A DNA stretch of 64,000 nucleotides from Chloroflexota bacterium (lineage in GTDB: Bacteria > Chloroflexota > UBA11872 > VXOZ01), in assembly GCA_022824225.1 (NCBI GenBank), contig JAJEAH010000042.1, forward strand, positions 2,216 through 66,215, read 5' to 3'. A program made the position numbers and the translations under genes. Positions 7,381-61,292 of the stretch are shown in pieces. Numbering within the stretch: position 1 is the stretch's first letter; the number at the start of each line of letters is the position of its first letter. The notes under the pieces are model-generated. The model saw nothing but the letters and a program-made list of their open reading frames with translations. It was not told the origin of the DNA and ran no database searches.

Positions 7381-7391
7381 TCCGTGCCGGT

Positions 7392-9450: not shown

Positions 9451-9606
9451 CCCTGCCTAGTAGCTGGAATCCGTATGAGTCTACAAGACTGCGCGAGACT
9501 TCGTGGTCTTGTCTATCGTCCTGGTGTAATCTCACTATGTAAGCCGCGGCGGTCATCAGCGGCGTTTCGCTTAGAGCCTGCCGGGTAAGCAGAGGAGAAA
9601 TCGAGC

Positions 9607-11370: not shown

Positions 11371-11504
11371 CGCGGGCCTGACGCCGGAGGTTGCGGGAAT
11401 GGCCGCGCGAAGCTCGTCGCCCTTGCCATCTCCGCAACGCTGCGCGCCCAGCGGTCGCAGGCGGCAAACCTGCGCTGCCGGCCAACTGCGCCTGCGGACA
11501 GCAT

Positions 11505-11770
11505 TGAGGCTTGCCCCCCGCTCGGATTGGCGGGGTTCCGTCATTCCCGCACCCGCGGAATTTCGTCGCTTCCACTGGATGGACTGGTACAAGGTAATCC
11601 GTCATTCCCGCGCCCGCGGGAATCCATCCGGATTCTTCCCTGCTCGGCATGGTAGGGCGCCTTCTCGGAGAAGATGGATTCCCGTTTCCACGGGAATGAC
11701 GGATTCTGCCTTGCTCCCCTCTATGTGGCGCGGGGGCGTGTCCCCTGCCTCGGTGGTCGAACGCCGGCAG
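11505..11770. repeat. cluster of REP-like A/B palindromic units
   Basis: B units at 11508 and 11740; A units at 11538, 11598 and 11672 (GTCATTCCCGCGCCCGCGGGAATCCATCC and GGATTCCCGTTTCCACGGGAATGAC). Confidence 0.7.
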
Positions 11771-11809
11771 AGCCAACTACAGGCATGCGCGCGCGCCCGG
11801 TACGTTGGC

Positions 11810-13012
11810 TCAGCTCGCGTGCCACAGCGGCGCAATCTTGGCGTGGTATTCGTCCTCGATCAGGGCGGCGTATTCCGGCCAGATAGCCATGAGCGCGTCG
11901 AGCCGGGCGTCGTTCATATCGTCGTGGGGCGTAATCGCGGCATACACGTTGGCGACGGTGCGTACCGCGGAAGGCTTGAGCGTGCCTGCCAGCCGCTGCC
12001 ACACCGGCCCGGCGTCCGTGCCGTTGTCATCGAGCAGGGCTGTGAAGAACTGTGTGCTCAGCCCCTCGATTTCTTCGCCCAGGTGCATGCGCAGCCACTC
12101 GCCGTCAAAGAGGTCCGGAGAGGCGCGGCGGAAGAAGACGGCGATGCCAAAGCGCCCGCGGATACCGGCAAGAGCCTGCAACGCGGAGCGTAAGCGTCGT
12201 TCACGCGCAGCCTGCGCGGGCGGTTGTTGCGGCAAGTCCCGGCAAAACGCTGCCACCCGGTCGCGCAACTCGTAGACTACCTCCAGCAACTCGTCCGCCA
12301 TGGCGGCGCACTCATCCTCAGACATTTGCACGCGGTAGTCCGCGGCGACAATGGCATTCAGCCTCTCCAGCAGCGGCCGCTTGCCAATCACACCCGGCAG
12401 AACCTGCAGCGCCGACGGCTTCGTCGGCGCCCACGCGTTGCGCAGCAGGCCGCACGCCAGCTTGGCGGCCGGCAGGAACCAGTGGGACAGCGCACCGTAG
12501 ACCGGGTAGTAGGGCAAGTATTCCGGCAGCAAGTTGATGGGCGGGTCGAACTGCTGCGCGCGCGGCACCAGGTAGATCTTGAACTTGCCGCAGGCCTCGT
12601 GCTGTTGGGCCTCCGTTAGCTGCGCGGGCTGCGCTGCCAGGACGTCGTCCAACGGGCTCGCCGCGCCGCCGATGCGCTGCCAGTCGCGCACCTCGCCCAT
12701 GAGCGGCAGGAGTTGCCGCGCCTCGTCCGGCGAACAGATGAAGCCGGGCGGGTGTTCCAGAATGCGGGCGTAGTGGGGCGCGTCTTCCAGCATCGCCACG
12801 TACGCCTCACCGCCCGCGCGGCTCAGCGCCAGCCAGGATTCGGCATCGGGCGCGTCCGCTACGGTACGCAGATCGTGATCGCTGAATCCCGGCGTGAGCG
12901 TGCCGAGATGATGCTTGCAATACACGGCAGCAGCGCAACTTGGCACGTGCTCGGCAAGGTAGCGCCCAAGCTCCGCACCGATGTAGCGGTAGTCGTCCAA
13001 AGAGATTTGCAT
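11810..13012 (-). CDS. hypothetical protein (weak nucleotidyltransferase-like G-S/T...SDhD motif)
   Basis: 400-aa ORF with good coding potential. HHLGTLTPGFSDHDLRTV loosely resembles the Pol-beta-type nucleotidyltransferase motif. No other family signature was recognised. Confidence 0.4.
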   Translation of the reverse strand: MQISLDDYRYIGAELGRYLAEHVPSCAAAVYCKHHLGTLTPGFSDHDLRTVADAPDAESWLALSRAGGEAYVAMLEDAPHYARILEHPPGFICSPDEARQLLPLMGEVRDWQRIGGAASPLDDVLAAQPAQLTEAQQHEACGKFKIYLVPRAQQFDPPINLLPEYLPYYPVYGALSHWFLPAAKLACGLLRNAWAPTKPSALQVLPGVIGKRPLLERLNAIVAADYRVQMSEDECAAMADELLEVVYELRDRVAAFCRDLPQQPPAQAARERRLRSALQALAGIRGRFGIAVFFRRASPDLFDGEWLRMHLGEEIEGLSTQFFTALLDDNGTDAGPVWQRLAGTLKPSAVRTVANVYAAITPHDDMNDARLDALMAIWPEYAALIEDEYHAKIAPLWHAS

Positions 13013-35555: not shown

Positions 35556-36197
35556 CTACGGTGCGGCCTCTTCCGAGACCTTCACCTCACGTGAATCCGG
35601 CGGTTTTCCCGTTCGGGTCAAGAGCTTGATGACGAAGAAGCCGCCGATGAGCAGCACCATGAAGACGATGAACAATATGTCGAGATACTCATCGATGAAG
35701 GCCGCGATGGGTTCGCCAAACAGGGCAATGAGCAGGCCGACGGCAAAGAAGCGCGCGCCGCGTCCCAGCAGCGACGCCAGCATGAAGCGGCCAAAGTGCA
35801 GCCGGAACATGCCCGCCGTTACGGTAAAGACCTTATAGGGAATGGGCGTGAGCGCGGCAATGAGGATCGCCCACACGTCGTAGCGCTGGTATTTCTGCTC
35901 GACGAAGGTTATCTTCTGCTGGGAGAACAGCCGGTCCACCACCGGACGGCCGCCCCACATGCCGATCACGTAGCCGATGCTTGCGCCCACCAGCGAACCG
36001 GCCAGGCAGACGGCGGCAAAGACCAGGGCAAAGCTCGGCTTGCCCACGCCCAGCGCAATGAGGAGGGGATCCGGCGGCACCGGAAAGATGATCGACTCCG
36101 CCGCCGAAAGCGCAAAGAGCGCCAACCCGCCGAACGGCGACTCCGCCCAGGCGAGCACCCAGTCAACAAGGTCGTGGAGAAGGTCCATCGGGTTCAT
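35556..36197 (-). CDS. DedA/YqaA (SNARE-associated) family membrane protein
   Basis: 213 aa with multiple TM helices. FPVPPDPLLIALG resembles the DedA-family re-entrant loop motif. Confidence 0.7.
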   Translation of the reverse strand: MNPMDLLHDLVDWVLAWAESPFGGLALFALSAAESIIFPVPPDPLLIALGVGKPSFALVFAAVCLAGSLVGASIGYVIGMWGGRPVVDRLFSQQKITFVEQKYQRYDVWAILIAALTPIPYKVFTVTAGMFRLHFGRFMLASLLGRGARFFAVGLLIALFGEPIAAFIDEYLDILFIVFMVLLIGGFFVIKLLTRTGKPPDSREVKVSEEAAP

Positions 36198-36223
36198 GGG
36201 GGTCTCTAAACTTTCAGATACGT

Positions 36224-36637
36224 CTATAGGTGGTGGATTTCAACGTCGTCCCAGTGCCGCTGGAAGTACTCGGCCACCAGCCGCCGGTGACAGTAGTTGG
36301 GTTCATGCTCGCTGCAGAGCAGGCAACTGTTGGCGATGGTTGCCGGCAAGCGCTTGGCGATGCGTCTTCCCTCGGTGGGTTGCAAACCCTCTTCGAGTAT
36401 GCGCCGCGCTTGCAACAGCGCGAGAAACTCGCGTTCATAGGTCTCCCAGTCAATGCTGCCGTCGCGGTAGCCGTCCAGCAGCGCTTTCGTGGGCGCGAGG
36501 TCCGGCGCGTGGATGTACCGCATCCGGCAAACCCTCCGTAGAAGATACGGCAAGTCGTCGCCGTGCGCAAAGCGCGCCAGTTGTGAAGTGTTTTTCAGCC
36601 GCACGTCCACCAGCCGTTGCGCGCCGGAAGCGCGCAA
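36224..36637 (-). CDS. DUF488 family protein (N-terminus unresolved; overlaps the upstream DUF488 gene)
   Basis: CSEHEPNYCHRRL is the DUF488 C-terminal motif. The in-frame codons upstream of the nominal TTG start encode LYTIGFTKKTAATFFDLL, which is the DUF488 N-terminal motif, but no ATG/GTG/TTG start exists before the preceding stop. Confidence 0.5.
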   Translation of the reverse strand: MRASGAQRLVDVRLKNTSQLARFAHGDDLPYLLRRVCRMRYIHAPDLAPTKALLDGYRDGSIDWETYEREFLALLQARRILEEGLQPTEGRRIAKRLPATIANSCLLCSEHEPNYCHRRLVAEYFQRHWDDVEIHHL

Positions 36638-36690
36638 TAGATCGAAGAACGTCGCGGCCGTCTTCTTGGTGAAGCCGATGGTGTAGAGTC

Positions 36691-37392
36691 TCAGGGCGCA
36701 CGCTCCCCAGCGCCGCCGCCCGCGGCCGGATCGCGCCAGCGCGCGCCCACGCGCTGCGCCCGGCGGGATACGGCGTCCGCGATCACTTCCTGGCGGGAGC
36801 GGAAGAGGTCGCCGTGATGAGGCAGTTTGAATTCATCCAACAGCCGGTTGAGGGCGTCGTCGTGGTTCTCCAAGCTGCCGTCGGCGTGGATATGCGCCAC
36901 GGATACTCCCTGCTTTGCCAGCGTCTGGGCGATCAAGAGCGTGCGGTGGCAGTCCAGCGGCTCCTTCTCGCTGCACATTAGAGCCAGGCGGCGCACCACA
37001 GGAGCATCCGTTTGTCCCCGCATCACGTGCGGGGCAGGCTCTGAGCCTGTCGAAGGATGAACGGATGCGGCATCCAGCACAAATTCAATGCCGTGCTTGA
37101 ACGCAGCGGTTGCCGCCAGCTTGCCATAGGCAACGCGCCCGTCGGCGTCGTAGAGACCGCGGTCAGCCGGTTGTCCGCCCAGTTCCTTGCCCCGAAACGT
37201 ATAGCCGATGCCGGCTTCCTGCAGCGCATCGGCCAGGACTTCCTTATTGAAGTGAGGCATGTACCGGCTATAGGGGGCCGAACGGACATCCACCACCGCG
37301 GCCACGCCGTGGGCCCGCAGCAGCGCCAAGAACGCGGCGGGTTCGTGATTGGAATGTCCGATAGTAAACACCGGGTTTTGTTCTACGGTCAC
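36691..37392 (-). CDS. DUF488 family protein
   Basis: 233 aa. VFTIGHSNH, VVDVRSAPYS and CSEKEPLDCHR are DUF488 hallmarks. Confidence 0.65.
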   Translation of the reverse strand: MTVEQNPVFTIGHSNHEPAAFLALLRAHGVAAVVDVRSAPYSRYMPHFNKEVLADALQEAGIGYTFRGKELGGQPADRGLYDADGRVAYGKLAATAAFKHGIEFVLDAASVHPSTGSEPAPHVMRGQTDAPVVRRLALMCSEKEPLDCHRTLLIAQTLAKQGVSVAHIHADGSLENHDDALNRLLDEFKLPHHGDLFRSRQEVIADAVSRRAQRVGARWRDPAAGGGAGERAP

Positions 37393-37509
37393 GTTTAAGT
37401 ACTCCTGGTAAGCCCGCCGGCCGGCAGCCGCTCCGCCGGGGCCGAGGCAGGCGTCTGCCCAGACGAGCGTCCCGGGCCGCCTGCCGGCACGTGCGCTCGC
37501 CTTAGCGAG

Positions 37510-38271
37510 CTAGAGCTCGATGATGGCGGCGATGAGTTTGTAGGCATAACCCTGATATGGCTCGCCCAAGCTTACGGTGAGATAGCACGGACCCAGCGTG
37601 TACGTATTATTGGGCCGGTTGAGGTATGTTTCTTCGTATTCCGGCGCTGTCACCCAGAGGCGGTAGGCCGCGCCGGCATGCCAGAAGCGACCTTTGATGC
37701 GCCGCCGGAAGTCGCCCTGCGCCGCTCTTGGCTGGATGACGTCGAGCTCCAGGGCGTCAACCCGCGCCAGCCGCAGCGAACTACGCGGCGATTGGACGTT
37801 TCGCGGTGACTGCGCGCCCCGCGACGATTGCGCGCCCCGCGACGATTGCGGGTACGCCACGGGCAGCCTGTCGTTCTGCCCGTGGTGCGTACTGAAACCG
37901 TCTATCCACAGCGGCCCCGCCGGGTCCGCCAGGCGGTCGAGGACTTCCGGCCGCAGCCGATCTACCAGCCGCCAGCGACGCTCCGGGTCCAGTAACCAAT
38001 TCTCCTGTTGGTGTCCTTGCGGCCGCGCCCGGCGCAACGGCACGTCCAGCACGTCGAGCACGCGCGGCTCAGCGCCATCCGGCGAACCGGCAGCGCCAGC
38101 GGCGTACTGCCGCTCGCGCGCGTTGACGGCCGCGTCCGCCCGATCGCTCACGGGCCGCACCCAGCCGCCGGGCCGTCCGTCCGCCATCAGTTCCTTGCCC
38201 GCGATGCAACGACCGCCATCCTTGCGTGAATTGGCAAGGCACACGATGCGCTTAACGCCGCCGTCGGCCAT
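37510..38271 (-). CDS. hypothetical protein, RIVCLANSRK-motif family, paralog A
   Basis: N-terminal KRIVCLANSRKDGGRCIAGKE and C-terminal YTLGPCYLTVSLGEPYQGYAYKLIAAIIEL are shared with the adjacent paralog. It carries an internal SSRGAQSSRGAQ tandem from a duplicated 18-bp unit. Start chosen at MADGGVKRIV. Confidence 0.5.
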   Translation of the reverse strand: MADGGVKRIVCLANSRKDGGRCIAGKELMADGRPGGWVRPVSDRADAAVNARERQYAAGAAGSPDGAEPRVLDVLDVPLRRARPQGHQQENWLLDPERRWRLVDRLRPEVLDRLADPAGPLWIDGFSTHHGQNDRLPVAYPQSSRGAQSSRGAQSPRNVQSPRSSLRLARVDALELDVIQPRAAQGDFRRRIKGRFWHAGAAYRLWVTAPEYEETYLNRPNNTYTLGPCYLTVSLGEPYQGYAYKLIAAIIEL

Positions 38272-38309
38272 GGGAATGCTTCGCCTCACGGTGCGCACGC
38301 CCAAGCACG

Positions 38310-39035
38310 TTAGCCGCCAAACAACGACGGTTGCTCCACGCCGGCGGTCAATTCCGCGATGGTCGTCTTGTCCGCCAGGGCAATGATCGCCGCGACAAGC
38401 TTGTAGGTATAGCCCCGATAGGACTCACCGAGGCTCACGGTAAGGAAGCACTCACCAAGCGGATACGTGCCGTTGGGCTTGGAATGGTACGCTCGCTCGT
38501 ATGCGGGGTCCGTTATGCTCAGCCAGTACTCCACCTCATCATACCGGAATCGACCTGCCAGTTTTCCTCTCGTGACTGATAATTCCAACCAGGCTACGTG
38601 AATGAAACGCAAGGAACTGACGAGGTCCGCGGCGAGTCTCTGGGGGATGCGGTCGTTTCTGCCGCTGCCACTGCTGTAGCCATTGACCCAGAGCGGCGCT
38701 CCGTCATCGACCAGAGAGTTGAGCTCCGGGCTTTCGAGGCGGCCTATCTTCAGCCAGAAGCAGCTTGTGTCCAGCAGCCAGTTTTCCCGCTGGTAGCTTT
38801 CAGGTTGCGGCTCAAGTACGGGGACGACTATGACGTCCAGCAACTGCGGTTCGCTGCGGTCCCGGTATTGCCGCTCGTAGTCGTTCAGTTCGCCGGTCGG
38901 CCGCTCGCTTACCGGCCGTACCCATACCCCGGGATCACTGGCGGCCGCGATCTCTTTGCCGGCGATGCATCGCCCACCATACTTGCGCGAGTTTGCCAGG
39001 CAGACGATACGCTTGCGGTTAGGGTTTGCCGCCAT
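38310..39035 (-). CDS. hypothetical protein, RIVCLANSRK-motif family, paralog B
   Basis: 241 aa. RKRIVCLANSRKYGGRCIAGKE ... YPLGECFLTVSLGESYRGYTYKLVAAIIAL. No family recognised. Confidence 0.5.
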   Translation of the reverse strand: MAANPNRKRIVCLANSRKYGGRCIAGKEIAAASDPGVWVRPVSERPTGELNDYERQYRDRSEPQLLDVIVVPVLEPQPESYQRENWLLDTSCFWLKIGRLESPELNSLVDDGAPLWVNGYSSGSGRNDRIPQRLAADLVSSLRFIHVAWLELSVTRGKLAGRFRYDEVEYWLSITDPAYERAYHSKPNGTYPLGECFLTVSLGESYRGYTYKLVAAIIALADKTTIAELTAGVEQPSLFGG

Positions 39036-39205
39036 TGTTCGGCTTCGGCAGGTGGTCTAGGGGTGAGAACGTGCCGGGGATAGCACACGACGAAAAGCCC
39101 CAAAGGGCTTCACCGCCCGGCGCCGCGAAAAGGGCAGTCTGGCGTTGGGGTTACGCACGCACCATGCCCTGTATTCCTGTCGGCCAACGGCATGGGCTCG
39201 CCGGG

Positions 39206-39541
39206 CTAATACGTCGCGGGTGCGTAGACGTTGAACGTGCGCAGCGGTTCGTCGCCGGTGCAGCGGAGTTCGTGGGGGTCGCCGGCGGGGATGATGAGCA
39301 CGTCGCCGGGGGCCAGGGGGGCGGTCCGGTCGCGGACGGTGGCCTCGCCGTGGCCGGAGACGACGTAGACCACTTGGTCGGACTCAGGATGGTCGCTGGC
39401 GTGGAGGCCGCCGGTCTTCTCGCCGGGCCCCAGCACCAAGATGCCGACCTGGCTCTTTGGGGTGCCGGCAACGATGCGAAAGAGCGAATCTTGATCCAAA
39501 ACCGGCGCGACGTTTACTATCTCCATGGCCGTACCTCTCAA
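39206..39541 (-). CDS. cupin-domain protein
   Basis: 111 aa. GxHxH...E...PxG...H-type cupin motifs (GGLHASDHPESDQVVYVVSGHG, IPAGDPHEL). Confidence 0.6.
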   Translation of the reverse strand: MRGTAMEIVNVAPVLDQDSLFRIVAGTPKSQVGILVLGPGEKTGGLHASDHPESDQVVYVVSGHGEATVRDRTAPLAPGDVLIIPAGDPHELRCTGDEPLRTFNVYAPATY

Positions 39542-40290
39542 CGCTGCAAGTTTCTACACTAAAAGTGTCGTTAATATAATACCGTTGGCAGTCGTCCACC
39601 GCGCGGCCTAGCAAAGACCGCGCTTGGCTCACGGTGTCTTCAACGCCGGCGGCGGTCGCTCGTGGCGGACGCCCGTCACTCCCTTGCAATGAGACCGCAC
39701 GCGTTCCGTCGTTCCGGCGCAGGCCGGAAACCATCTTCGTCCGCTCCTGGACTCCGGCTTTCGCCGGAGTGACGTTTTGGGAAGCCGCCGTCGCCGCTCA
39801 GACCGGAGGCGTACTCTCAATCGTTGACGTGCTCTCTTTCACTAACGTGCTTTAATCTTTACAAGGATTATGCAAAGCCGCGCCTCGGATACCGCCCTTC
39901 GGTGGCACACACCCGGTACGGGGACAATGGCGGTTTCCGTCTAACGTGTGCCCGCAACGCGGAACGGGGCGGGAACGCACACGCGCACAGGCTGCAAACC
40001 TACGCTACCGGCCCACACTCCCGCGTAGACGGGAATCCGTTTAGCGCTTGCCGGTCGATTCCACCGGTTTCCCTACCCCGACGCACACGGGAGACCGCAT
40101 GGCGGACCGAGCAAAACGCGTACCAGCGGCCCTGCGCCCCCCGCGCACTTGGGAATCCGCAGTGTTTGTTGGGCCGGGCGCTGGCTTCCGGCTGCCGCCG
40201 GCATGACGGCTTGGATTCGGCCAAACGCAACTCCGGGCGCTTGCTTGCCCTATGCGCGCCGCAGACCGAGCGCTGCCCGGTACGCGGGCC

Positions 40291-42372
40291 CTACGCCGAG
40301 GCTTCCTCTTTTTCGCGCTTGTGGGCTGCCACCACTTGCTCTTGGGTGCTGGCGGGAACCTGTTCGTAGCCCAGGAATTCAGACGAAAACGTGGCGCGGC
40401 CCTGGGTGAGCGAGCGCAGGTCGGTGGCGTAGCGCAGCACCTCCGCCTGCGGGACATCCGCCTGCACCTCCATGGTGCCGGGACTCACCATGTCCATGCT
40501 ATGCACCTTGGCACGGCGGCTCGTGAGGTCGCCAATCACGTCGCCCATGCGGTCTTCCGGCACGCGAACATTCATCTGCAGCACCGGCTCCAGCAGGACC
40601 GGCTTGGCGCGGTCCATAGCCTCGCCGAGCGCCATGGAGCCGGCGATCTGAAAGGCCAGGTCGGAGGAGTCCACCGTGTGCTCTTTGCCGTCCACCAGCG
40701 TCACCCGCAGGTCCACTACCTCGCCGCCGGCCAGCGTGCCTTCCTTCATGGCCTCGCGGATGCCCTTGTGCACCGCTTCGCGGAACGGGGCCGAGATCGC
40801 GCCGCCGAAGATCTTATCCACGAACTCGAAGCCTTCGCCCCGGTCCGTGGGTTCGAGCTCGATATTGCAGACGGCGTACTGGCCGTGGCCGCCGGTCTGG
40901 CGCACGAAGCGGCCCTCCGCCGCGGCCGTGCCCATGATGGTCTCTTTATATGGCACTCTGACGGGGACGGTCTTGACATCTGCCCCAAACTTGCGTTTCA
41001 TGCGCTCCAGCGCGACATTGATATGGGTCTCGCCAATGCCGGATAGCAAGGTCTGGCCCGTGATGGGCTGTCGTTCCACGTGCAAGCTGGGGTCTTCTTC
41101 CGTCACGCGGGCCAGGGCGCTGCTGAGCTTTTCCAGGTCTTCTTTCGAGGTTGGCTCGATGGCGGCGGTGAAGAGCCACGGCGGAAACGTAACCGCCGGC
41201 AACGTCAGCGGCTCTCTGCGTTCGCCCAGCGTGTGGCTGGTGAGGGTGGTGGCGAGTTTGGCCAGCGTGCCTATGTCGCCGGCGCCGATTTCCTGCGCCG
41301 ACTCCTGCTCCCGGCCGCGCACGAAGAGCAGTTGCCCAATGCGCTCCTCGGACTCGGTGTCCACGTTCCACACGCGGGAGTCCGAGCGCAATGTGCCCGA
41401 GTAGACGCGGATGAAGGACAGCTTGCCCACATAGGGATCCCCCAGGGTCTTGAACACGAACGCCGCCAGCGGGCCGTCGGCGTCGGCGGCGAGTTCGCGT
41501 TCCTCGCCGGCCTGGGTGGCTGTGGCCGGGCCGATCTCCGCGGGCGAGGGCAAGAAGCGCACCATGGCGTCCATGAGCGCCTGCACGCCTATGTTGCGGG
41601 TAGCCGAACCGCACAGCACCGGCGTAATCTGCCCGCTGAGCACACCCTCGTGCAGCGCGCCCTGCAGTTCCTCGGCGGAGATGTCCTCGCCTTCCAGGTA
41701 CTTCTCGGTCAAGTCGTCATCGAGTTCCACCACGTTCTCGATGAGGGTCATGCGGTACTCTTCCACCGTGTCCTCGAGCTCTGCCGGCACGGCGGTCTCG
41801 GTTACCTGGTTGTCGGCGCATGTGTAGGCAACGTTGGCCAGGACATCCACCACGCCCGAGAATTCGTTGGCGGCGCCGATGGGCACGTGCAACGGCGCCA
41901 CACCGTTGCCAAAGTACTCCCGCAGGCTGTCCACCGTGGCGAAGTAATCGGCGTTTTCCCGGTCCATGCGATTGACAAAGATGAGGCGCGGCAAATCGTG
42001 GGCCGTAATCCGCTCCCAAGACTCTTCCGTGCCCACTTGCACGCCGCCGGATACATCCACCACCAACACCGCGCCGTCCGACACGTGCAGCGCGCTGGCA
42101 ACCTCCCCGGCAAAGTCGGCGTACCCGGGCGTATCCAGCGTGTTTATCTTGACATCGCCCCATTCAACGGGTATGAGAGATAGATTGAGTGAGATCTGCC
42201 GCTTGACTTCGTCCGGATCGTAGTCGGAAACCGTGGTGCCGTTGTCTACGGAACCGAGACGATTGATCGCACCGGTAGCAAAGAGCATTGCTTCCGCGAG
42301 AGAGGTCTTGCCTGCGCCAACGTGGGAATAGAGTCCAACGTTGCGAATCGATTCCGTTGCATACGCCTTCAT
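40291..42372 (-). CDS. elongation factor G family GTPase (EF-G paralog) with switch-II His-to-Tyr substitution
   Basis: All five EF-G domains are recognisable (SHVGAGKTS P-loop, NRMD G4, domain IV/V conserved blocks). The switch II reads DTPGYADF instead of DTPGHxDF; TAC at this codon was verified on the nucleotide sequence. Start chosen at MKAYATESIRNVGL. Confidence 0.85.
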   Translation of the reverse strand: MKAYATESIRNVGLYSHVGAGKTSLAEAMLFATGAINRLGSVDNGTTVSDYDPDEVKRQISLNLSLIPVEWGDVKINTLDTPGYADFAGEVASALHVSDGAVLVVDVSGGVQVGTEESWERITAHDLPRLIFVNRMDRENADYFATVDSLREYFGNGVAPLHVPIGAANEFSGVVDVLANVAYTCADNQVTETAVPAELEDTVEEYRMTLIENVVELDDDLTEKYLEGEDISAEELQGALHEGVLSGQITPVLCGSATRNIGVQALMDAMVRFLPSPAEIGPATATQAGEERELAADADGPLAAFVFKTLGDPYVGKLSFIRVYSGTLRSDSRVWNVDTESEERIGQLLFVRGREQESAQEIGAGDIGTLAKLATTLTSHTLGERREPLTLPAVTFPPWLFTAAIEPTSKEDLEKLSSALARVTEEDPSLHVERQPITGQTLLSGIGETHINVALERMKRKFGADVKTVPVRVPYKETIMGTAAAEGRFVRQTGGHGQYAVCNIELEPTDRGEGFEFVDKIFGGAISAPFREAVHKGIREAMKEGTLAGGEVVDLRVTLVDGKEHTVDSSDLAFQIAGSMALGEAMDRAKPVLLEPVLQMNVRVPEDRMGDVIGDLTSRRAKVHSMDMVSPGTMEVQADVPQAEVLRYATDLRSLTQGRATFSSEFLGYEQVPASTQEQVVAAHKREKEEASA

Positions 42373-42466
42373 ACGGTTTGTACCCTTGGTGGAAGAAGAG
42401 GTATAGTGCACTTAAGTTTGGCATTATATACCAGAGTGTGGCAACGCATCAAAACCTCGCGACTAG

Positions 42467-42663
42467 TAGGTATTGGCTTAGGCTGCGCAGGTATGGGTGT
42501 CAACGTAAACGGCTGCCCCCCGAAATGTCATTCTGAGGAGTGCGGCTGACATGTCATTCTGAGGAGTGCAGCGACGAAGAATCTATTGTCGGGAGCACAC
42601 TAGATTCCGCGTCTTTGACGAAGTCAGCGAGTCCTGTTCGACGCTGCGCTCGGAATGGCATGA
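42467..42663 (+). mobile_element. E-type hairpin (MITE-like) element, copy 1, with conserved about 60-bp leader
   Basis: TGTCATTCTGAGGAGTGCAGCGACGAAGAATCTA....TAGATTCCGCGTC...GCTCGGAATGGCA forms nested inverted repeats. It is preceded by GTAGGTATTGGC...GGTGTCAACGTAAACGGCTGC, which is shared with the copies at 49659 and 51364. Confidence 0.6.
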
Positions 42664-42949
42664 GGTCTAGCCCATCAAGGTGATCGATCAAGAACTACTG
42701 ATTCCCCAAGACCTCCCTGCCGGTACGGGCAGTCCCTCTACGCTTGGGAGTGGTCGGGTTCGTGTCATGTAGTAGAACCATGCCGCAGCCGGCGGCAGGT
42801 GCTGTGTTGCAGGTTGCTACCTTTCCGCACCCCAACTGGATTGTGTTGTCTCACCTAGCGCGCGCCGGTGAGGGCCTTGGGGGAAACGGCCCGCAGCGAA
42901 TGTGCCGATGGGTCTTGTATGCCCGCCACGAAATAAGGGAGGTAGCTCG

Positions 42950-43321
42950 ATGCAAATGAGGATAATCAAAGTCGCGCTGCTCGTGCTCGCGGTCATGCAC
43001 CTGCTGTTCGTCGCCGTCACGGCGGCTGTCGGCGGATTTGCCGATGGCGGCGACCTCCTGCAACGACTGACCCTCATGGTCGTCCATCCGGTTACGGCCG
43101 TTGTGGTGCTGTACCTGGTGGCGGCGCGGGCGCCTGCGCCCATCGTGCTCCGAATCGGGTCCGTCCTCATTGCTCTCAACGTAGCCTTGGACGTGTACTT
43201 GGCAATTGCTTTCCTCTCCGGCGCCCTGCTCGGCGACTGGTGGCTGGCGGCCGCCTTTGCGGTGGTTCCCATACTCGGGTTGATCTACGCGTGGACGGCC
43301 TCGGCCCGGCGCGCTGCTTAG
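42950..43321 (+). CDS. hypothetical small membrane protein
   Basis: Four predicted TM helices. Start chosen at MQMRIIKVALL. No family recognised. Confidence 0.4.
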   Translation: MQMRIIKVALLVLAVMHLLFVAVTAAVGGFADGGDLLQRLTLMVVHPVTAVVVLYLVAARAPAPIVLRIGSVLIALNVALDVYLAIAFLSGALLGDWWLAAAFAVVPILGLIYAWTASARRAA

Positions 43322-43393
43322 ACGCCCCGCCACAGGCCCGGCCGTGACTGGCGAAACCGGCGCGAGTGTGCGCCCAACGGAGAAGGCGGGACG

Positions 43394-43840
43394 ATGGTGA
43401 GTCAACTCATCGGATCATTTCACACGCGGAACGCGGCACTGCAGGCCATCGAGGAACTGGCAGCACTGGGCAATGACGTGGAGTTCGTCCCGGTGGCACA
43501 CGGCGGGACCCGCGGAGCCGCGCTGCGCGTCATCTTGCGCAGCGCGCAGGGGGCCTTCATTGGCGGCGCTATTGGGCTGGCCGCCGTCTTCATCGTGCCG
43601 AGCGAGTTCCTGCTGCCTGTCGCGATCATTTGCAGCGCGGCTGGCGGACTGCTCAACGTCCGCCTCACCCGACCAAAGCCGCTCCCGATTGCGGTGGAGG
43701 ATCCAAGCGTACAGGTGCTCGTGATCGTGCAAGGCAGGGACCTGGAGACGGCCAGGATGGTGCTGCAGAAGGAAGGCGTCACGGCCATCCGGCAGATCGA
43801 CCCGGACACGGCGCGCCCTGCAGGGTCTGCCGGAGCCTAG
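43394..43840 (+). CDS. hypothetical protein with central hydrophobic segment
   Basis: 148-aa ORF with reasonable codon usage. No motif recognised. Confidence 0.35.
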   Translation: MVSQLIGSFHTRNAALQAIEELAALGNDVEFVPVAHGGTRGAALRVILRSAQGAFIGGAIGLAAVFIVPSEFLLPVAIICSAAGGLLNVRLTRPKPLPIAVEDPSVQVLVIVQGRDLETARMVLQKEGVTAIRQIDPDTARPAGSAGA

Positions 43841-44234
43841 GCACGCGGCTCTTGGGCGCGGGCGTGGGCGCGCGCTGCGACCGTGGAGTTGCGGCCCGGC
43901 CGCGGCGCGCCGGCATTGCGATCGCCGCGCTTCCGCCCTGCCGGCGAGTGCGACCCCTCTTTGCGTGACATAACCCCCGGCCTTTCGCCGCTCCCTCGTT
44001 CGCCAATGCGCTGGGTCGCGCCGGTAGTCTCCGGCCCCGGCGCGGCGACGTAGGGTTTGCCCCGCAGCGCGCAGCCACAGCACGGATGGGTGGCGGGGAA
44101 GGCTATGGTGGTGCGTTGGCCCGATGGCGCGCAGCCAAGCACACGCTCATTGACTGGATTGAAAGCAATCTGAGTAGGCCCCAATGCGCCCAGTGGCTGC
44201 GCTCGGCCGCGTGCTGTCGCGCTTGGTCCGGCGC

Positions 44235-45365
44235 TTACCGCGCGGCAATGCCGGCGGGTTGCAGGATCTCCTGCAAGCGCGCGATGACTGTCGGCACGTC
44301 CTCGGGGCGCAATGTAATGGGATCGATGAAGAGAAAACCCTCTTCAGCGTAGTGGTCGCGGGTGTAGATGGGCGGGGTGCCGGATTCGAGTGCCGCGCAG
44401 ACGGCCACGGCGTCCATGCCCGCCACTGCCGGATCGACCACGAACTTGGTGCGGGTCTGCGGATTGCCGGTAACGTCCCGCTCGGCAAATACGCTGACTC
44501 CGGGAATGCCCTGCAGCGCCGCCACCATCACGTCTACCTTGGCGTTCTGCTCGGCTTCCCAGGCGGCGTAGTCGAGATTCGCCAGCCACTCCATGCGCTC
44601 GATGACGCTCACGATGCCCTCTTTCGAAGGCTTCATGGCGCGGCCGATGCCGGTGCCCTGCAAGGCCGCTGCCGCCACCAAGTCGCGCCTGCCGGCAATG
44701 ACACCCGAGGTGAAGCCGCCCAGGTGCTTGTGACCGCTGAAACAGACCGCGTCGGCGCCTTCCGCCAGCAAACGATGCGCAAACAGCGCCCCTGCCGCGG
44801 CGTCGACAATCACGGGAAGGTTGTGGCGGTGGGCGATCGCGGCGAAGTCCGGCAGCGAAAGTTGGCCGCTGGCGGCGGTCATGTGGGAAACGACGTAGAG
44901 AGCGGCGGCGGTCTGTTCGGTGACGGCGTACTCCATTTGCTCCGGCAGCGCGCGGTTTGCCTCACCGAACTCAACAGCCTTGGCGCCGCTGAGGTGGACC
45001 ATCTGCGTCACCGGCGCGCCGAATCCAACTGTGTGCCGCTTCTGGATGATGACCTCGTTGCGCATGCGGCTGGTGTCGGGCAGCGCCAGCACTTTGCCCA
45101 GGTGCGTGCCGGTCATGGCTCCGGCACAAAGGACCGCGATGGCTGACGCCGCGCAGTGCGTTACCGTGCCGGCTTCCGCCCCGGTGGCGTGGGCAATGGC
45201 CGCATCGGCGGCGTCGAGCAGTTCCGTCATGCGCGCGAATTCCGGCGCTGCCTCCACCACCCGCTCCACTACCGCAGGCGGCACGGACGATGCGCCCAGC
45301 GTGGTCTGCGTGCCCGCGGTGTTGATGATGGGCGTCAAGCCATAGCGTTCGTGGTACCTGGACAT
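44235..45365 (-). CDS. SelA-like/DgaE-like fold-type I PLP-dependent enzyme
   Basis: FSGHKHLGG (PLP-lysine context, cf. SelA SGDKLLGG) and overall collinearity with the L-seryl-tRNA(Sec) selenium transferase-related family. Start chosen at MSRYHERYGLTPIIN. Confidence 0.55.
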   Translation of the reverse strand: MSRYHERYGLTPIINTAGTQTTLGASSVPPAVVERVVEAAPEFARMTELLDAADAAIAHATGAEAGTVTHCAASAIAVLCAGAMTGTHLGKVLALPDTSRMRNEVIIQKRHTVGFGAPVTQMVHLSGAKAVEFGEANRALPEQMEYAVTEQTAAALYVVSHMTAASGQLSLPDFAAIAHRHNLPVIVDAAAGALFAHRLLAEGADAVCFSGHKHLGGFTSGVIAGRRDLVAAAALQGTGIGRAMKPSKEGIVSVIERMEWLANLDYAAWEAEQNAKVDVMVAALQGIPGVSVFAERDVTGNPQTRTKFVVDPAVAGMDAVAVCAALESGTPPIYTRDHYAEEGFLFIDPITLRPEDVPTVIARLQEILQPAGIAAR

Positions 45366-45434
45366 GCTATGCGACCTACCTCTCTCCGCTTGTGATTCAA
45401 GACCTACCTGAACGTCATTTGCCTGTAAACGGCG

Positions 45435-45480
45435 TTGGGGCACGGCATAGTGTAGGGGCACGGCATGCCGTGCCCCTACG
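45435..45480. repeat. C-type perfect palindrome GTAGGGGCACGGCATGCCGTGCCCCTAC plus adjacent half-copy
   Basis: 28-bp perfect palindrome at 45452-45479, about 70 nt upstream of the SelA-like start. Family members sit at 49427, 57745, 58656 and 61658. Confidence 0.85.
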
Positions 45481-45818
45481 CTCCAAGTTGCTCGTACGTG
45501 TACAAGAGTCCTCGCGTTTGGGTCTGAAAGCCCCTCTCCCGTCGAGGGAGAGGGTTGGGGTGAGGGTGAATGTTGCCAGTCAGGCAAACCTGCCCATAGT
45601 AAACAACCACGCATTCACGCTATCCCAACGCAGCAGCAACCTACCCTTCACAATTCTCCTCCGGACGATCGAGGATAGCCTGTATCTGCGGCTTCAGAAC
45701 TGCCCAAGAGGGCAACCACAAGGGTTGCCCCTACGTGTTGGTCGTTTGACGGCGCCGTACGGCCCGGTGGCCGGCGGCAGCCAGGTTGCCTCTACGTGTT
45801 GTTGGTAGCTTGACGGGA

Positions 45819-47246
45819 CTACCCTTTGTACTTCTCCTCCGTTTCGTCCAAGATGGCCTGGATTTGCGGTTTCAGCGCCAGCAGGCCCTCTTCCACGCCC
45901 GCGGTACCGGCGTAGACGTTGTTGAGCCATTCCTTTACCTCTGCGGAACCGCTGAAGGCGAAGTTTGGCACCACCCAGCCGGGGTCATAGCCGCCCGGAT
46001 AGTCGAGGACGTCGATGATGACGTCCAGCCGGACCTTGTCTTTCAAGTCAGGGAAGGTCTCGTTGGCCCACTGCTCCATGAGGTCGGCGCGCATGGGAAT
46101 CGTGCCTTTGCCTACGGCCCAGTTCAGGGTGCTGCCCTGCCAGGCCACGTATTGCCAGGCTTCTTCGGGATGGTCGGCGTTCGTCACCACACCGTTGGCG
46201 TCCGTCCACTGGAAGGAGGCCGTGGTCTGCACTGTCGGCAACGGCGCGAAGTCGATAGGCAGGTCTTCGTCGCGAATGCGCTGCATCATGTCGCCGAACG
46301 TGCCGCTGGAGAGCGTATTCAGGAACGCCAGTTTGCCCTGGTAGAAGAGGTTGACGATGCTGCCCTCGCCGAACAGGTCCGCGCCCTGGCCCGGTTTGAG
46401 CATGGCGCCGTGCTCATGCACCATGGAGAAGTAGTCTTTGTAGCACGCCATCGTCTCCGGGCTGTCGCACACGGCCGTGCGGCGGTCGTCGGAAATCCAC
46501 TGGCCGCCCCAGAGGAACGGGAGATTGCCGACCAGCGCGCCGGTGCCCATGTTGGAAGCGCCCATGGTTGCAACGGCGCCGCCCTCAGTAACGGTCGTCT
46601 GCCGCGCCATGTCAATGTAAGCGTCCCAATTCCATTCCGGGTCGCCCCACGTGGCCGAGGGCTCGTTGAGGCCGGCTTTCTCGATGATCTCCCGGTTGTA
46701 CGGCAGTGCCATCATGTTGCCGCCGGTCTGGTTGGGCAGGCTGACGATCTCGTTGCGAATGCGGCTGATGGAATTGAAGATGTTCTGCGGATAGTTGCTC
46801 AGGTCGAAGTTGTCGCGCTTGATGTAGTCGGCCAGATCGATGAAGTACCCGAGCAAATACGTGGCGTTGTCACCTTCCCAGGCGGCATCGGGTTGCTCAC
46901 CGGCCGCAAAGGCGGTGCGGAACGACTCCTGGTAGGCGTGCATGTTGTGGATGACTTCCACCGTAATGCCCGGATGGGTCTCTTCGAACGGGGCAACCAG
47001 GGTTTCCGGATAGTTCTCGAGCTGACGGGCATTGAGCCAGGTGCCGTAGCGGATGTGCACCGGTTCCTTTTCGGCGGCAGCCTCTTCCGCCTGCGGCGCG
47101 GCTTCCTCTTCCATTTCCTCAGCGGCGGCATCGGGCTCCATCATCGTGGCCTGCCCGCAAGCGGCAAGGAAGGCGCCAGCGCCGGCCATCCCAATGCCGG
47201 CGAGGATTCCCCGCCGGGTCAATCGCAACTCATCACGCGTAGACAT
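45819..47246 (-). CDS. ABC transporter substrate-binding lipoprotein (family 1 SBP) with TAT signal
   Basis: TRRGILAGIGMAGAGAFLAACG has a twin-arginine motif and lipobox. An acidic Ala/Glu-rich linker is followed by an SBP_bac_1-like body. Start chosen at MSTRDELRL. Confidence 0.75.
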   Translation of the reverse strand: MSTRDELRLTRRGILAGIGMAGAGAFLAACGQATMMEPDAAAEEMEEEAAPQAEEAAAEKEPVHIRYGTWLNARQLENYPETLVAPFEETHPGITVEVIHNMHAYQESFRTAFAAGEQPDAAWEGDNATYLLGYFIDLADYIKRDNFDLSNYPQNIFNSISRIRNEIVSLPNQTGGNMMALPYNREIIEKAGLNEPSATWGDPEWNWDAYIDMARQTTVTEGGAVATMGASNMGTGALVGNLPFLWGGQWISDDRRTAVCDSPETMACYKDYFSMVHEHGAMLKPGQGADLFGEGSIVNLFYQGKLAFLNTLSSGTFGDMMQRIRDEDLPIDFAPLPTVQTTASFQWTDANGVVTNADHPEEAWQYVAWQGSTLNWAVGKGTIPMRADLMEQWANETFPDLKDKVRLDVIIDVLDYPGGYDPGWVVPNFAFSGSAEVKEWLNNVYAGTAGVEEGLLALKPQIQAILDETEEKYKG

Positions 47247-49658: not shown

Positions 49659-49932
49659 GGTAGGTATTGACTGGGGCTGCACAGGTCTGGGTGTCAACGT
49701 AAACGGCTGCTCATCAGAATGCCATACTGAGGAGTGCAGCCGCTATGCCATTCTGTGGGGTGCAGCCGATATGCCATTCTGAGCAGTTCAGCCGATATGC
49801 CATTCTGAGCAGTTCAGCCGATCTGTCATTCTGAGGAGTGCAGCGACGAAGAATCTAGTGTCGGGAGCACACTAGATTCCGCGTCTTTGACGAAGTCAGC
49901 GAACCCTGTTCGTCGCTACGCTCGGAATGACA
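49659..49932 (+). mobile_element. E-type hairpin (MITE-like) element, copy 2, with internal 20-bp tandem reiterations
   Basis: Same leader and terminal inverted repeats as copy 1. The central part carries three to four tandem ATGCCATTCTGAGCAGTTCAGCCGAT-like units. Confidence 0.6.
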
Positions 49933-51363: not shown

Positions 51364-51500
51364 GTAGGCTACAACTTAGTCTGCACAGGCATGAGTGTCA
51401 ACGCAAACGGCTGCGCCTCGATATGTCATTCTGAGGAGTGCAGCGACGAAGAATCTAGAGTCGGGGGCATACTAGATTCCTCGCTGCACTCGGAATGACA
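51364..51500 (+). mobile_element. E-type hairpin (MITE-like) element, copy 3
   Basis: Leader AGTAGGCTACAAC...GAGTGTCAACGCAAACGGCTGC, then TGTCATTCTGAGGAGTGCAGCGACGAAGAATCTAGAGTCGGGGGCATACTAGATTCC...CACTCGGAATGACA. Same orientation as copies 1 and 2. Confidence 0.6.
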
Positions 51501-58742: not shown

Positions 58743-61292
58743 TCAGTTGCGCAACGGCTTCCCGGTCTTCAGGATGTGAGCGATTCGGTCTTGGGTCTTG
58801 GGTTCGCCGCAGAGGCTGACGAAGGCCTCGCGTTCCAGATCGATGATGTGTTCCTCGTCCACCTGCGCGCCCGCCCGCGCGTCGCCGCCGGTGAGAATGA
58901 ACGCGAGCTTGCGCGCGATCGTCAGGTCGTGCGCCGTGGCCCTACCGGCCTGCGCCGCTTCCGCCACCGGCGCGATCAACGCCTCGCGCTCTTCAGCGCC
59001 GAGCACGGGGAGTTGGACGGGAGCGTAGCGCGCGGCATCCCCGTCTGCCGCCAACGCCAGCGCGGCGGCCTTGGCGCGGTACAGCAGATGGTCGGGATTC
59101 GCCTCGATGATGTCGTCCGCGCGCAGATAGCCCAGGACAACCGCGTCCGGCGCGTGCTGCGAGACTTTTCCCAAGCGAATTGTCTCGAACGCGCGGCGTA
59201 CGGCCGCGGCCACAGCGGACGGACTCCCATCTGCGGCACGTCCGTCATTCCCACGTGCAGCATTTCCGTCATTCCCGTGCAAACGGGAATCCATCTTCTC
59301 TTCCTCCCGCAAACGGGAATCCATCTTCTCTTCCCCCTGCAAACCGGAACCCGTCTTCTCTTCCCCCCGCACTGCCGGCAACCGCAGCAGCAGTTCCTTG
59401 CAGCCGCCGCCGGCGGGGACGAGACCCACGGCAGTCTCCACCAACCCCACGTAGCTCTCACGCGCCGCCACGACGCGCTGCGCCGAAAGTCCCAATTCCA
59501 GCCCGCCGCCCAGCGCGCGGCCGTATAGCGCGGTCACGACCGGCGCCGGCATGCGTTTGAGGGCCAGCAACCCGTATTGCAGCTTGTGGATGAAGGCTTC
59601 GATGGCGTCCCACTGCCTATCCTGCGCAGCCTGCAGAATAACCGCGAGGTTCGCGCCGACGCAGAAATTCGGCTGCACGTGGCTGCTGAGCACCAGGCCG
59701 TCGAAGCCGTCCGGCGTGCGCGCGGCCGCGACCTCCAACATGTCGAGAACGTCGGCGTCGATGGTCTGCTTTGCGCCGTGCACGTCCAGGAACGCGATGC
59801 CGTCGCCCAGGTCCCGCAGCGTCGCGCCCGTCCGGCGCTCTACCGTCTGGGCTTGCGATTGCAACCACGGCAGGGAGAGCGCGCGTTGGCTGCCGGTTAC
59901 CGGCGCGTATGCGCCTTGGGGCGTGGCTTGTTCCGTGCCGGCCCCGGTGCAGCGGTAGAAGGGCTCCCGCCGCGCCGCGAGACCGGCAACCCAGGGCGGC
60001 ACAGCCAGACCGTCGCGGGCCATGCGTTCCGCCGTCTCCGCGATGCCCATCGCTTCCCAGGTCTCGAAAGGCCCCAGCGACCACGCGAAACCCCAGCGCA
60101 TGGCGTTATCGACGCTGGCGATTTCGGGAGCGACCTCGGGGATCTTGGCCGCGGCAAAGGCAAAGAGGCGCGAGAGGATGCGCCAGGCCAACGCGCCGGC
60201 GGCATCCCCGCTCCCAGCGGCATCTTTGCTGTCAGCGCCATAGCTACTGTCGGCAAGCGCGGCGATGCGGGCGCCGCTGTCCTCGATGCGGCGCGCCGCC
60301 GCCAGCGACAGCGCCGCCAGTGCGCGCTGCGGCCGGTACGCCAGCGTCTCCGGGTCCAGCACGTGGAATTCACGGCGGCCGTCGGCCTCAACGGCCTTGT
60401 AGAACCCCTGGCGGGTCTTGTCGCCCAGCCAGCCGCGCGCCACCATCTCCCGCAGAAAACCGGGCACGGCAAACGCTTCTTGTTCCCAGGCCTCCGGCAC
60501 CGTGGCCCGCAGCTTGTCGCAGATGTCCACGTAGACGTCCAGGCCGATGAGGTCGAGGGTGCGAAACGTGGCGCTGCGGGGCCGCCCCAACGGCGGCCCG
60601 GTGACCGTGTCCACCTCATCGGGGCCGAGCCCCAAATCCCGCATGGCGCGGATGGTTTCCGCAAGCACGTACAGGCCGATGCGGTTGCCGACGAAGCCGG
60701 GCACGTCATGCGCGAGCACGCAGCCCTTGCCCAGGGTCTCGCTGCCGAACCGCTGCACCGCCGCGGCAACGGCGGGGTCGGTCTCCTGTGTCGGGATGAG
60801 TTCGAAGAGCCGCAGGTAGCGCGGCGGATTGAAGAAATGCGCGCCCATGAAGCGCGGCCGCAGTCCGGCGGGCAGCGCGGCGGCAATGTCGGTGATGGGA
60901 ATGCTGGAGGTGTTCGTGCTGGCAACGGCGTCCGCCCGGAGATGCGGCGCCAGCGCCGCCCACGTGCTCCGCTTGACGTCCAAGTCTTCGAAGACCGCCT
61001 CGATGACCCAGTCGCAGTCCGCCAGGCGCTCGCGGTGGTCTTCCACGTTGCCGGGACGGATGCGGTCCAGGTCGCCGCGGTCGAACAGCGGCGAGGGCCG
61101 CATGGCGGCGAGTTTTTTCCGGGCGGCCGCCGCCCGCGCGTCGCGACCCGCCGGGTCCGGCAGGTCGAGCAATTCGCACTCGATGCCGAACCCGGCCAGC
61201 AGCGCCGCAATTTGCGCGCCCATGGTGCCGGCGCCAATCACCGCGGCCCGGCGCACGGTCCACACGTCTTCTGCAGTCGTCTGGTTAGCCAA
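58743..61292 (-). CDS. bifunctional 3-hydroxyacyl-CoA dehydrogenase / enoyl-CoA hydratase (FadN-like) carrying an in-frame repeat-derived insertion
   Basis: 849 aa. N-terminal AVIGAGTMGAQIAALLA (NAD Rossmann motif of HCDH) and C-terminal crotonase blocks ending in EAFVSLCGEPKTQDRIAHILKTGKPLRN. The peptide GEEKMDSRLREEEKMDSRLHGNDG inside the crotonase domain is encoded by A-type repeat units. Confidence 0.85.
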   Translation of the reverse strand: MANQTTAEDVWTVRRAAVIGAGTMGAQIAALLAGFGIECELLDLPDPAGRDARAAAARKKLAAMRPSPLFDRGDLDRIRPGNVEDHRERLADCDWVIEAVFEDLDVKRSTWAALAPHLRADAVASTNTSSIPITDIAAALPAGLRPRFMGAHFFNPPRYLRLFELIPTQETDPAVAAAVQRFGSETLGKGCVLAHDVPGFVGNRIGLYVLAETIRAMRDLGLGPDEVDTVTGPPLGRPRSATFRTLDLIGLDVYVDICDKLRATVPEAWEQEAFAVPGFLREMVARGWLGDKTRQGFYKAVEADGRREFHVLDPETLAYRPQRALAALSLAAARRIEDSGARIAALADSSYGADSKDAAGSGDAAGALAWRILSRLFAFAAAKIPEVAPEIASVDNAMRWGFAWSLGPFETWEAMGIAETAERMARDGLAVPPWVAGLAARREPFYRCTGAGTEQATPQGAYAPVTGSQRALSLPWLQSQAQTVERRTGATLRDLGDGIAFLDVHGAKQTIDADVLDMLEVAAARTPDGFDGLVLSSHVQPNFCVGANLAVILQAAQDRQWDAIEAFIHKLQYGLLALKRMPAPVVTALYGRALGGGLELGLSAQRVVAARESYVGLVETAVGLVPAGGGCKELLLRLPAVRGEEKTGSGLQGEEKMDSRLREEEKMDSRLHGNDGNAARGNDGRAADGSPSAVAAAVRRAFETIRLGKVSQHAPDAVVLGYLRADDIIEANPDHLLYRAKAAALALAADGDAARYAPVQLPVLGAEEREALIAPVAEAAQAGRATAHDLTIARKLAFILTGGDARAGAQVDEEHIIDLEREAFVSLCGEPKTQDRIAHILKTGKPLRN
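59240..59375. repeat. three partial tandem A-type REP units located inside the fadN-like coding sequence, in frame
   Basis: CCGTCATTCCCACGTGCAGCATTTCCGTCATTCCCGTGCAAACGGGAATCCATCTTCTCTTCCTCCCGCAAACGGGAATCCATCTTCTCTTCCCCCTGCAAACCGGAACCCGTCTTCTC; on the coding strand this reads ...EEKMDSRL... . Confidence 0.85.

Follow-up and report, generated by a model that had tools for sequence, protein, structure and literature searches.

A probable EFG II (EF-G2) paralog with tyrosine in place of the switch-II histidine in an uncultured Chloroflexota bacterium

Gene, domains and nucleotide-binding motifs

The gene described here lies on a 64-kb stretch of DNA from an uncultured member of the Chloroflexota (contig JAJEAH010000042.1; the whole stretch is referred to below as the window) and encodes a paralog of elongation factor G (EF-G). 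It is very probably a member of the EFG II (EF-G2) subfamily, that is, a second EF-G copy located outside the str operon. Its protein carries tyrosine at the position of the catalytic switch-II histidine of canonical EF-G. This replacement is a normal hallmark of the previously described EFG II / EF-G2 proteins and by no means confined to the present gene. The loss of the histidine, the EFG II family and its Chloroflexi subgroup are all known already, and only this uncharacterised instance is new.

The minus-strand open reading frame (ORF) occupies 40291..42411. Translation from the ATG at 42372 yields 693 residues, MKAYATESIRNVGLYSHVGAGKTS...LDTPGYADFAGE..., and an identical protein (P0001) is present on two public contigs of metagenome-assembled genomes (MAGs). 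The sequence MKAYAT opens the protein in all orthologs, which were compared on 22-kb pieces of related chromosomes. A longer start at the GTG at 42411 was rejected in favor of the ATG because the intervening stretch is invariant at each base, would-be third codon positions included, and because the ortholog at one related locus (L006) has an 8-nt insertion between GTG and ATG that would break the frame if this stretch were coding. All five EF-G domains are matched by Pfam models essentially over their full length (GTP_EFTU 8-276, EF-G_D2 302-382, EFG_III 396-468, EFG_IV 472-590 and EFG_C 592-679), and the alignment with Thermus thermophilus EF-G is likewise end to end (610 bits).

The initial annotation, made from the DNA alone, had described an EF-G paralog without the switch-II histidine, with a TAC tyrosine codon and an atypical P-loop. 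Each of these observations is borne out. In switch II the codons are ctg gat acg ccc ggg TAC gcc gac ttt, the TAC of Tyr84 lying at 42123-42121. When aligned with T. thermophilus EF-G, Tyr84 faces His87 and Gly19 faces the P-loop Asp22. The departures of the catalytic centre from canonical EF-G are essentially these two replacements, of His by Tyr and of Asp by Gly; GSA is retained in G5. The motifs and the other features of the locus are collected in Table 1.

Table 1. Coordinates of the gene, its motifs and its upstream elements in the window.
Feature	Position	Strand	Remarks
Coding sequence, 693-residue EF-G2 paralog (probable EFG II subfamily)	40291..42372	minus	stop codon TAG at 40293-40291
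P-loop (G1), S16-H-V-G-A-G-K-T-S24 (SHVGAGKTS)	42301..42327	minus	canonical EF-G has AHIDAGKTT; Gly19 replaces Asp
Switch I / G2, R58-Q-I-S-L62	42187..42201	minus	canonical RGITI; Ser61 replaces the Mg-ligand Thr; Arg58 and Ile60 retained
Switch II / G3, D80-T-P-G-Y-A-D-F87 (DTPGYADF)	42112..42135	minus	Tyr84 at the catalytic-His position
G4, N134-R-M-D137	41962..41973	minus	canonical NKMD; guanine-specificity Asn and Asp retained
Domain IV loop 1, R488-FVRQTGGHGQY-A500	40873..40911	minus	tip reaching the decoding centre
Domain IV loop with His565, D561-GKEHTVDSS570	40663..40692	minus	matches SYHEVDSS of canonical EF-G
Sigma-70-like promoter, TTGATG-18 nt-TATAAT	42423..42452	minus	from a consensus scan; ~50 nt upstream of the ATG
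Invariant 5' leader with possible hairpin (UACC.CUU / AAGGGUA) over the Shine-Dalgarno sequence	42373..42416	minus	compared with the orthologous leaders L003-L008

Conservation of the tyrosine and subfamily assignment

A protein database search returned 7,657 matches at E <= 1e-50, of which the best 120, 50-100% identical to the window protein, were examined. Wherever the source was named, these homologs were annotated as "elongation factor G" of a Chloroflexota or Dehalococcoidia MAG. At least 106 of the 120 match D[TCS]PGY..[FY], and tyrosine occupies the histidine position in 98% of an aligned set comprising 117 of them and reaching down to ~50% identity. Scanning a single genome of each species gave 80 loci, distributed over Chloroflexota, Bacillota, Actinomycetota, Armatimonadota and other groups. 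An EF-G-type ORF was found in 79 of the 80, always with tyrosine (65 loci) or phenylalanine (14 loci) at the histidine position, and a str-operon location of this ORF was seen in none of the 79.

Among six orthologs with 86-89% protein identity, synonymous divergence (dS) is 0.90-1.26, near saturation, and the ratio of nonsynonymous to synonymous divergence (dN/dS) is 0.065-0.093. The Tyr84 codon is TAC in five of them and TAT in one. The gene, its tyrosine included, is under strong purifying selection. The initial annotation had held the five-domain protein to be intact and not a decaying pseudogene, and had named a sequencing error or a strain-specific mutation as what could undo its reading of the tyrosine. 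The first view stands, and we see practically no chance that an error in sequencing or assembly, a strain mutation or gene decay explains the substitution. All three are ruled out by the identical protein on independent assemblies, by the tyrosine encoded as TAC or TAT in six orthologs at the above dS and a dN/dS of ~0.07, and by the presence of tyrosine or phenylalanine across several phyla.

A profile-free search, run exhaustively against 1.84 billion representatives of 50%-identity clusters, gave 5,374 proteins at E <= 1e-30, the best 150 of which were tabulated. Their switch-II residue is Tyr in 68, Phe in 32, Asp in 11, His in 10, Ala, Leu and Ser in 5 each, Asn in 4, Thr and Gly in 2 each, Val and Glu in 1 each, and was not recovered in 4. 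Seven of the 10 His-type representatives have the canonical AH[IV]DAGKT P-loop and are EFG I-like; the P-loop of the other three was not recovered. As read from these alignments, EFG II as a whole has given up the switch-II histidine. Because phenylalanine, leucine and alanine are tolerated there, the residue at this position is unlikely to be catalytic in EFG II. Two further observations concern the EFG II-like representatives (P0151-P0300). The catalytic-histidine position is unusually free among them, the flanking D.PG and D/N-F being fixed, and one His-type sequence (P0172) has the canonical AHIDAGKT P-loop together with the EFG II-type Leu25.

The GTP- and Mg-binding residues of the pocket have been kept. 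Position 19 is glycine in 93% of the 117 aligned homologs, G21, K22 and T23 are invariant, and the nucleotide- and Mg-binding residues G21, K22, T23, Glu55, Arg58, Ser61, Asp80, Pro82, Gly83, Asn134 and Asp137 are invariant or nearly so. The same applies to the domain IV tip residues Q492, G494, G495, G497 and Q498, in both family sets, and to H565, V567, D568 and S569. What has been replaced family-wide is the pair of residues that canonical EF-G employs at the sarcin-ricin loop for activating hydrolysis, the switch-II histidine (to tyrosine) and the P-loop aspartate (to glycine).

Four EF-G subfamilies were distinguished by Margus, Remm and Tenson 2011 (PMC3150367), among which EFG II is a widespread, fast-evolving second copy that includes a Chloroflexi subgroup. 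That paper gives the EFG II G3 motif simply as "DxPG" and leaves the loss of the histidine undiscussed. Several lines of evidence place the window protein in EFG II. Its top NCBIfam model is NF009381 (888 bits), and the canonical model TIGR00484 scores 206 bits lower (682.3, cutoff 659.4). T. thermophilus EF-G-2 ranks the two models in the same order (808 vs 489); for canonical T. thermophilus EF-G the order is reversed (882 vs 1155). Because the TIGR00484 cutoff is passed, annotation pipelines name the gene plain "elongation factor G", and genome surveys can mistake it for fusA. Five of the six EFG II type I diagnostic positions, which in 1WDT numbering are Gly16, Leu25, Ser61, Thr291, Gly333 and Lys/Arg352 (PMC3150367), are present as Leu25, Ser61, Thr309, Gly353 and Lys372. 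RQISL (58-62) fits the relaxed G2 motif with serine in fourth place, in agreement with the r/kxxSI pattern of Chloroflexi EFG II (PMC3150367). In a neighbor-joining tree of 42 sequences, the window protein, T. thermophilus EF-G-2, Mycobacterium smegmatis EF-G2 and all Tyr/Phe-type sequences were separated from two EFG I sequences in 100/100 bootstraps.

Some observations weigh against this assignment. Position 16 is serine and not the EFG II-typical glycine; across the close family this position is Ser in 59%, Gly in 32% and Ala in 5%. Among the type II positions (D216, V250, L264, K471, K472, E513 and G603), which are 84-96% conserved in the published set and not absolute (PMC3150367), D216, V250 and L264 are present (3/7) and four are replaced, with Val490, Arg491, His535 and Ser625 at 471, 472, 513 and 603. 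The tree was built by a distance method with only two EFG I outgroups. Identity to the two solved EFG II proteins is only 37% (T. thermophilus EF-G-2) and 41% (M. smegmatis EF-G2), which is below the 44% to canonical T. thermophilus EF-G. Finally, EFG II is described as always sharing its genome with another EF-G, normally an EFG I (PMC3150367), and in the material compared, which consists of the 64-kb window and the 22-kb pieces of relatives, the window holds no second EF-G homolog; the initial annotation had likewise noted that canonical fusA is not in it. In view of its higher identity to canonical EF-G, the protein is regarded as a short-branch member of EFG II.

EFG I and EFG II do occur side by side at one locus of an unrelated genome (L078; JAQUEL010000004.1, "bacterium isolate STCSWMC_177"), within 46-12061. 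A canonical EFG I, cut at the locus start, lies at 46-1812 directly upstream of tuf, and a Tyr-type EF-G (DTPGYADF, 9902-12061) follows ~8 kb downstream in the spc operon, between rplE and rpsH. This arrangement suggests that in the lineage of L078 EF-G2 is co-transcribed with ribosomal proteins.

Promoter, leader and gene neighbourhood

The promoter block TTTGATGCG...CTCTGGTATATAATGCC and the ~45-nt leader hardly vary among seven genomes, and the region farther upstream is not conserved. In these genomes the coding sequences have reached saturation at synonymous sites. The gene seems to form a transcription unit by itself, and the conserved promoter-like site and leader fit independent regulation. 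The possible leader hairpin has 7 bp, with invariant stems and variation confined to the loop; in L006, TACCTCTT is duplicated. No covariation was found in this hairpin, and its folding energy is no better than that of shuffled sequence (z = 0.26), so that sequestration of the Shine-Dalgarno sequence is suggestive only. An Rfam scan of 36000-46000 gave no relevant riboswitch or RNA leader, its sole match being a chance-level sRNA (E = 0.027).

The neighbours of the gene encode a cupin, two DuOB proteins, a DUF488 protein, a VTT-domain protein, a SelA-like aminotransferase and a solute-binding protein, and two small divergent ORFs without a family lie upstream. Genes for S12, S7 or EF-Tu were not found near it. 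The cupin, DuOB pair, DUF488, VTT and small-ORF synteny is limited to the close lineage, that of the 86-89% identical orthologs, and is absent at all other loci; operon partnership was therefore rejected, and no functional partner was found. In the window, the DuOB (dual OB-fold, PF22557) genes, which are paralogs arranged in tandem, and the DUF488 gene that follows them occupy 36691-39035 on the minus strand, and all three are syntenic in L003-L007. In eight loci from Bacillota and Chloroflexota (L015, L019, L023, L028, L029, L031, L036 and L069), a large IF-2-like ORF (>600 residues, with GHVDHGKTS and DTPGHEAF or DTPGHAAF) lies within ~3-6 kb of EF-G2 on the opposite strand. There may be a recurrent neighbourhood of EF-G2 with infB.

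The gene surroundings also bear on two other roles. One is a specialist in ribosome recycling that would act with the ribosome recycling factor (RRF), like spirochaete EF-G2 and mitochondrial EF-G2mt. EF-G paralogs with such a division of labour exist (PMC3150367; preprint 10.64898/2026.05.25.727771), and frr lies ~8 kb away on the same contig. However, this frr is on the opposite strand in its usual tsf-pyrH-frr-uppS-cdsA cluster and is unlinked to the gene in other lineages. The known recycling specialists belong to the spdEFG2/mtEFG2 subfamily and have kept the catalytic histidine (His145 of mtEF-G2) and the G motifs, and M. smegmatis EF-G2, the sole EFG II protein tested for recycling, cannot perform it. 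We consider this role very unlikely.

An even smaller chance is given to a Tet(M)/Tet(O)-type protein that protects ribosomes against antibiotics. The overall architecture is EF-G-like and there are weak matches to tet_protect models. Against this, NF012153 scores 362 bits with a cutoff of 775, every specific Tet model is far under its cutoff, alignment to EF-G extends from one end of the protein to the other without the shortened Tet architecture, and no resistance or mobile-element genes are found among the neighbours. Thus, the part of the initial annotation that proposed a non-canonical role is supported insofar as the protein is a non-canonical paralog, but its suggestion of a protection-type factor is not.

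Repeats were noted on both sides of the gene. The 750 nt that separate the EF-G2 stop codon from the cupin gene downstream of it (39542-40290) hold no convincing ORF, compared with only 216-513 nt in relatives. They contain repeated CGGATTCCC-type cores (40020-40039 and 40140-40159) that resemble those of further tandem arrays in intergenic DNA (9153-9449 and 59279-59371 of the window). A 26-nt unit, ATG(T/C)CATTCTGAGGAGTGC(A/G)GCCGA(T/C), has 8 matches in the window against 0.02 expected, all of them intergenic and on the plus strand. Two tandem copies (42522-42572) lie just upstream of the EF-G2 promoter, 4.8 tandem copies at 49719-49844 and one at 51423-51441. A dispersed repeat and a binding-site array are candidate explanations of this unit.

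Possible role and comparison with known systems

The initial annotation took the switch-II histidine to be required in all translational GTPases and concluded that the protein is impaired in hydrolysis. The premise is too strong. Escherichia coli EF-G H91Q hydrolyzes GTP normally, its only defect being in the release of phosphate (PMC4532990), so the histidine is not absolutely required. The conclusion is plausible but not established, as two proteins with the same tyrosine point in opposite directions. T. thermophilus EF-G-2 is reported to have ribosome-dependent GTPase activity and to support translocation or poly(U)-directed synthesis (PMC3832671; PMC3150367; preprint 10.64898/2026.05.25.727771), its poly(U) activity being low (PMC3832671). 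M. smegmatis EF-G2, which has Tyr98 in place of the catalytic His88, reportedly shows neither ribosome-dependent GTPase nor ribosome recycling and is described as "stress-specific" (preprint 10.64898/2026.05.25.727771). Bacteroides EF-G2, the product of a fusA2 gene induced >200-fold under carbon limitation (PMC6989115), is reported to translocate without hydrolyzing GTP (Han et al. 2023, as cited in PMC12775393).

On balance, the best explanation as a whole, and one that we regard as likely, is an EFG II member that would act as an auxiliary GTP-binding translocation factor without His-type catalysis. Its functional half, an auxiliary translocation factor with altered GTPase, is taken separately close to an even call; it is favored over other roles because conservation extends to the residues for GTP binding and to the tips of domain IV. 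From this pattern we infer that EFG II has been selected for guanine nucleotide binding and for insertion of domain IV into the A site in the manner of a translocase. The protein would be expressed from its own conserved promoter and leader, bind GTP and dock at the ribosomal factor-binding site as EF-G does. Domain IV would then enter the A site, and movement of tRNA and mRNA would be promoted or at least stabilized. Turnover of GTP might be slow, absent, or achieved by a mechanism not involving histidine. Such a factor may work beside the canonical fusA product under slow growth, starvation or stress. Two points weigh against this proposal. The functional readings for this and any other Chloroflexota EF-G2 are drawn from sequence, and the three characterised relatives disagree, the Thermus protein being GTPase-positive, that of Mycobacterium GTPase-negative and non-recycling, and that of Bacteroides a translocase without GTPase.

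The main rival follows the mycobacterial protein. It supposes a GTPase-dead ribosome binder that does not translocate, but under stress sits on 70S or 50S particles at their factor site and thereby regulates or protects idle ribosomes. We think this unlikely, though several observations speak for it. The DTPGYADF motif is common to the window protein and M. smegmatis EF-G2, reported to lack GTPase and recycling and to be stress-specific, and the H88Y replacement in mycobacterial EF-G1 nearly abolishes ribosome-dependent GTPase (preprint 10.64898/2026.05.25.727771). The phenylalanine, leucine and alanine found at the histidine position in the wider family also argue against a catalytic role for this residue. 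However, the defect of MsmEF-G2 is ascribed, beyond the histidine, to the loss of P-loop His/Ile/Asp, switch I Arg/Ile/Thr, G4 Asn/Met and G5 (preprint 10.64898/2026.05.25.727771), and most of these changes are absent here. His17, the gate residues Val18 and Ile60, Arg58, Ser61, Asn134, Met136 and GSA are all retained, so that only the histidine and the P-loop aspartate are missing among the features held responsible. In addition, the invariant tip loops of domain IV are hard to explain if contact with the A site and the decoding centre were not used. The G motifs of the window protein are also nearer to canonical EF-G than those of T. thermophilus EF-G-2, which is reported to be active in GTPase and poly(U) assays.

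The auxiliary translocation factor could be extended to a broader proposal, in which all EFG II proteins, in Chloroflexota, Bacillota, Actinomycetota, Armatimonadota and beyond, would be GTP-bound translocases independent of hydrolysis. We hold this to be doubtful. If it were true, low-energy translation would be a widespread bacterial strategy and not a Bacteroides peculiarity, and the short-branch Chloroflexota protein would be a clean model for hydrolysis-independent translocation.

For the window itself the result carries little weight, as it adds one more EF-G2 from uncultured Chloroflexota and the His to Tyr replacement has been published for the mycobacterial protein. The three characterised members of EFG II show three different behaviours, and a catalytic pocket that is otherwise nearly canonical makes this protein a good substrate for asking whether residues 84 and 19 alone switch ribosome-activated hydrolysis.

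Compared with canonical EF-G (EFG I, fusA, str operon), the protein has the same length, the same five domains and 44% full-length identity to the T. thermophilus protein. Four canonical traits have no counterpart in it, namely the catalytic histidine, the P-loop aspartate, the switch I threonine (Ser here) and the threonine at position 25 (Leu here), and the canonical fusA neighbours rpsL, rpsG and tuf do not adjoin the gene. EFG II as published (PMC3150367) shares with it the five domains, the location outside the str operon, Leu25, Ser61, Thr291, Gly333 and Lys352, and the relaxation of RGITI to RxxS(I/L). It differs in the lysine-rich loop 1 of domain IV, where K471/K472 are replaced by Val-Arg in the window protein, as in EFG I.

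The EF-G2 of Bacteroides thetaiotaomicron (fusA2; PDB 7UVP / 8DMF; Han et al. 2023) is likewise an EF-G paralog encoded apart from fusA. The sequence sets compared here contained no protein of the Bacteroidetes type (YGYSV). The Bacteroides-type model NF058620 gives the window protein 561 bits, below the cutoff of 1000, and matches it in two stretches, the best of which covers profile positions 1-510 of 717. The absence of GTPase activity in the Bacteroides protein is reportedly ascribed to a 26-residue region unique to it, and the window protein (693 residues) aligns to EF-G without a comparable insertion.

M. smegmatis EF-G2 (fusA2; PDB 9K0Z / 9K10) has DTPGYADF in identical form and shares the signature positions Leu25, Ser61, Thr, Gly and Arg/Lys with the window protein. 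Unlike the latter, it has a domain II insertion. It has also lost P-loop His/Ile (GPSGG), switch I Arg/Ile, G4 Asn/Met and the whole of G5, all of which the window protein retains. The "EF-G2" equivalog model NF009377 places the window protein (684 bits) below its cutoff of 890 and therefore outside that ortholog group; an actinobacterial relative (L018) scores 807.

T. thermophilus EF-G-2 (PDB 1WDT / 2DY1; Connell et al. 2007) has the same tyrosine, in DAPGYGDF, and the same P-loop replacement of Asp by Gly, and it has its best NCBIfam model, NF009381, and its clade in common with the window protein. It is shorter (658-665 residues) and its G domain is more diverged, with TKLD, ASG and HRTTV where the window protein has an N(K/R)MD-type G4, GSA and RQISL.

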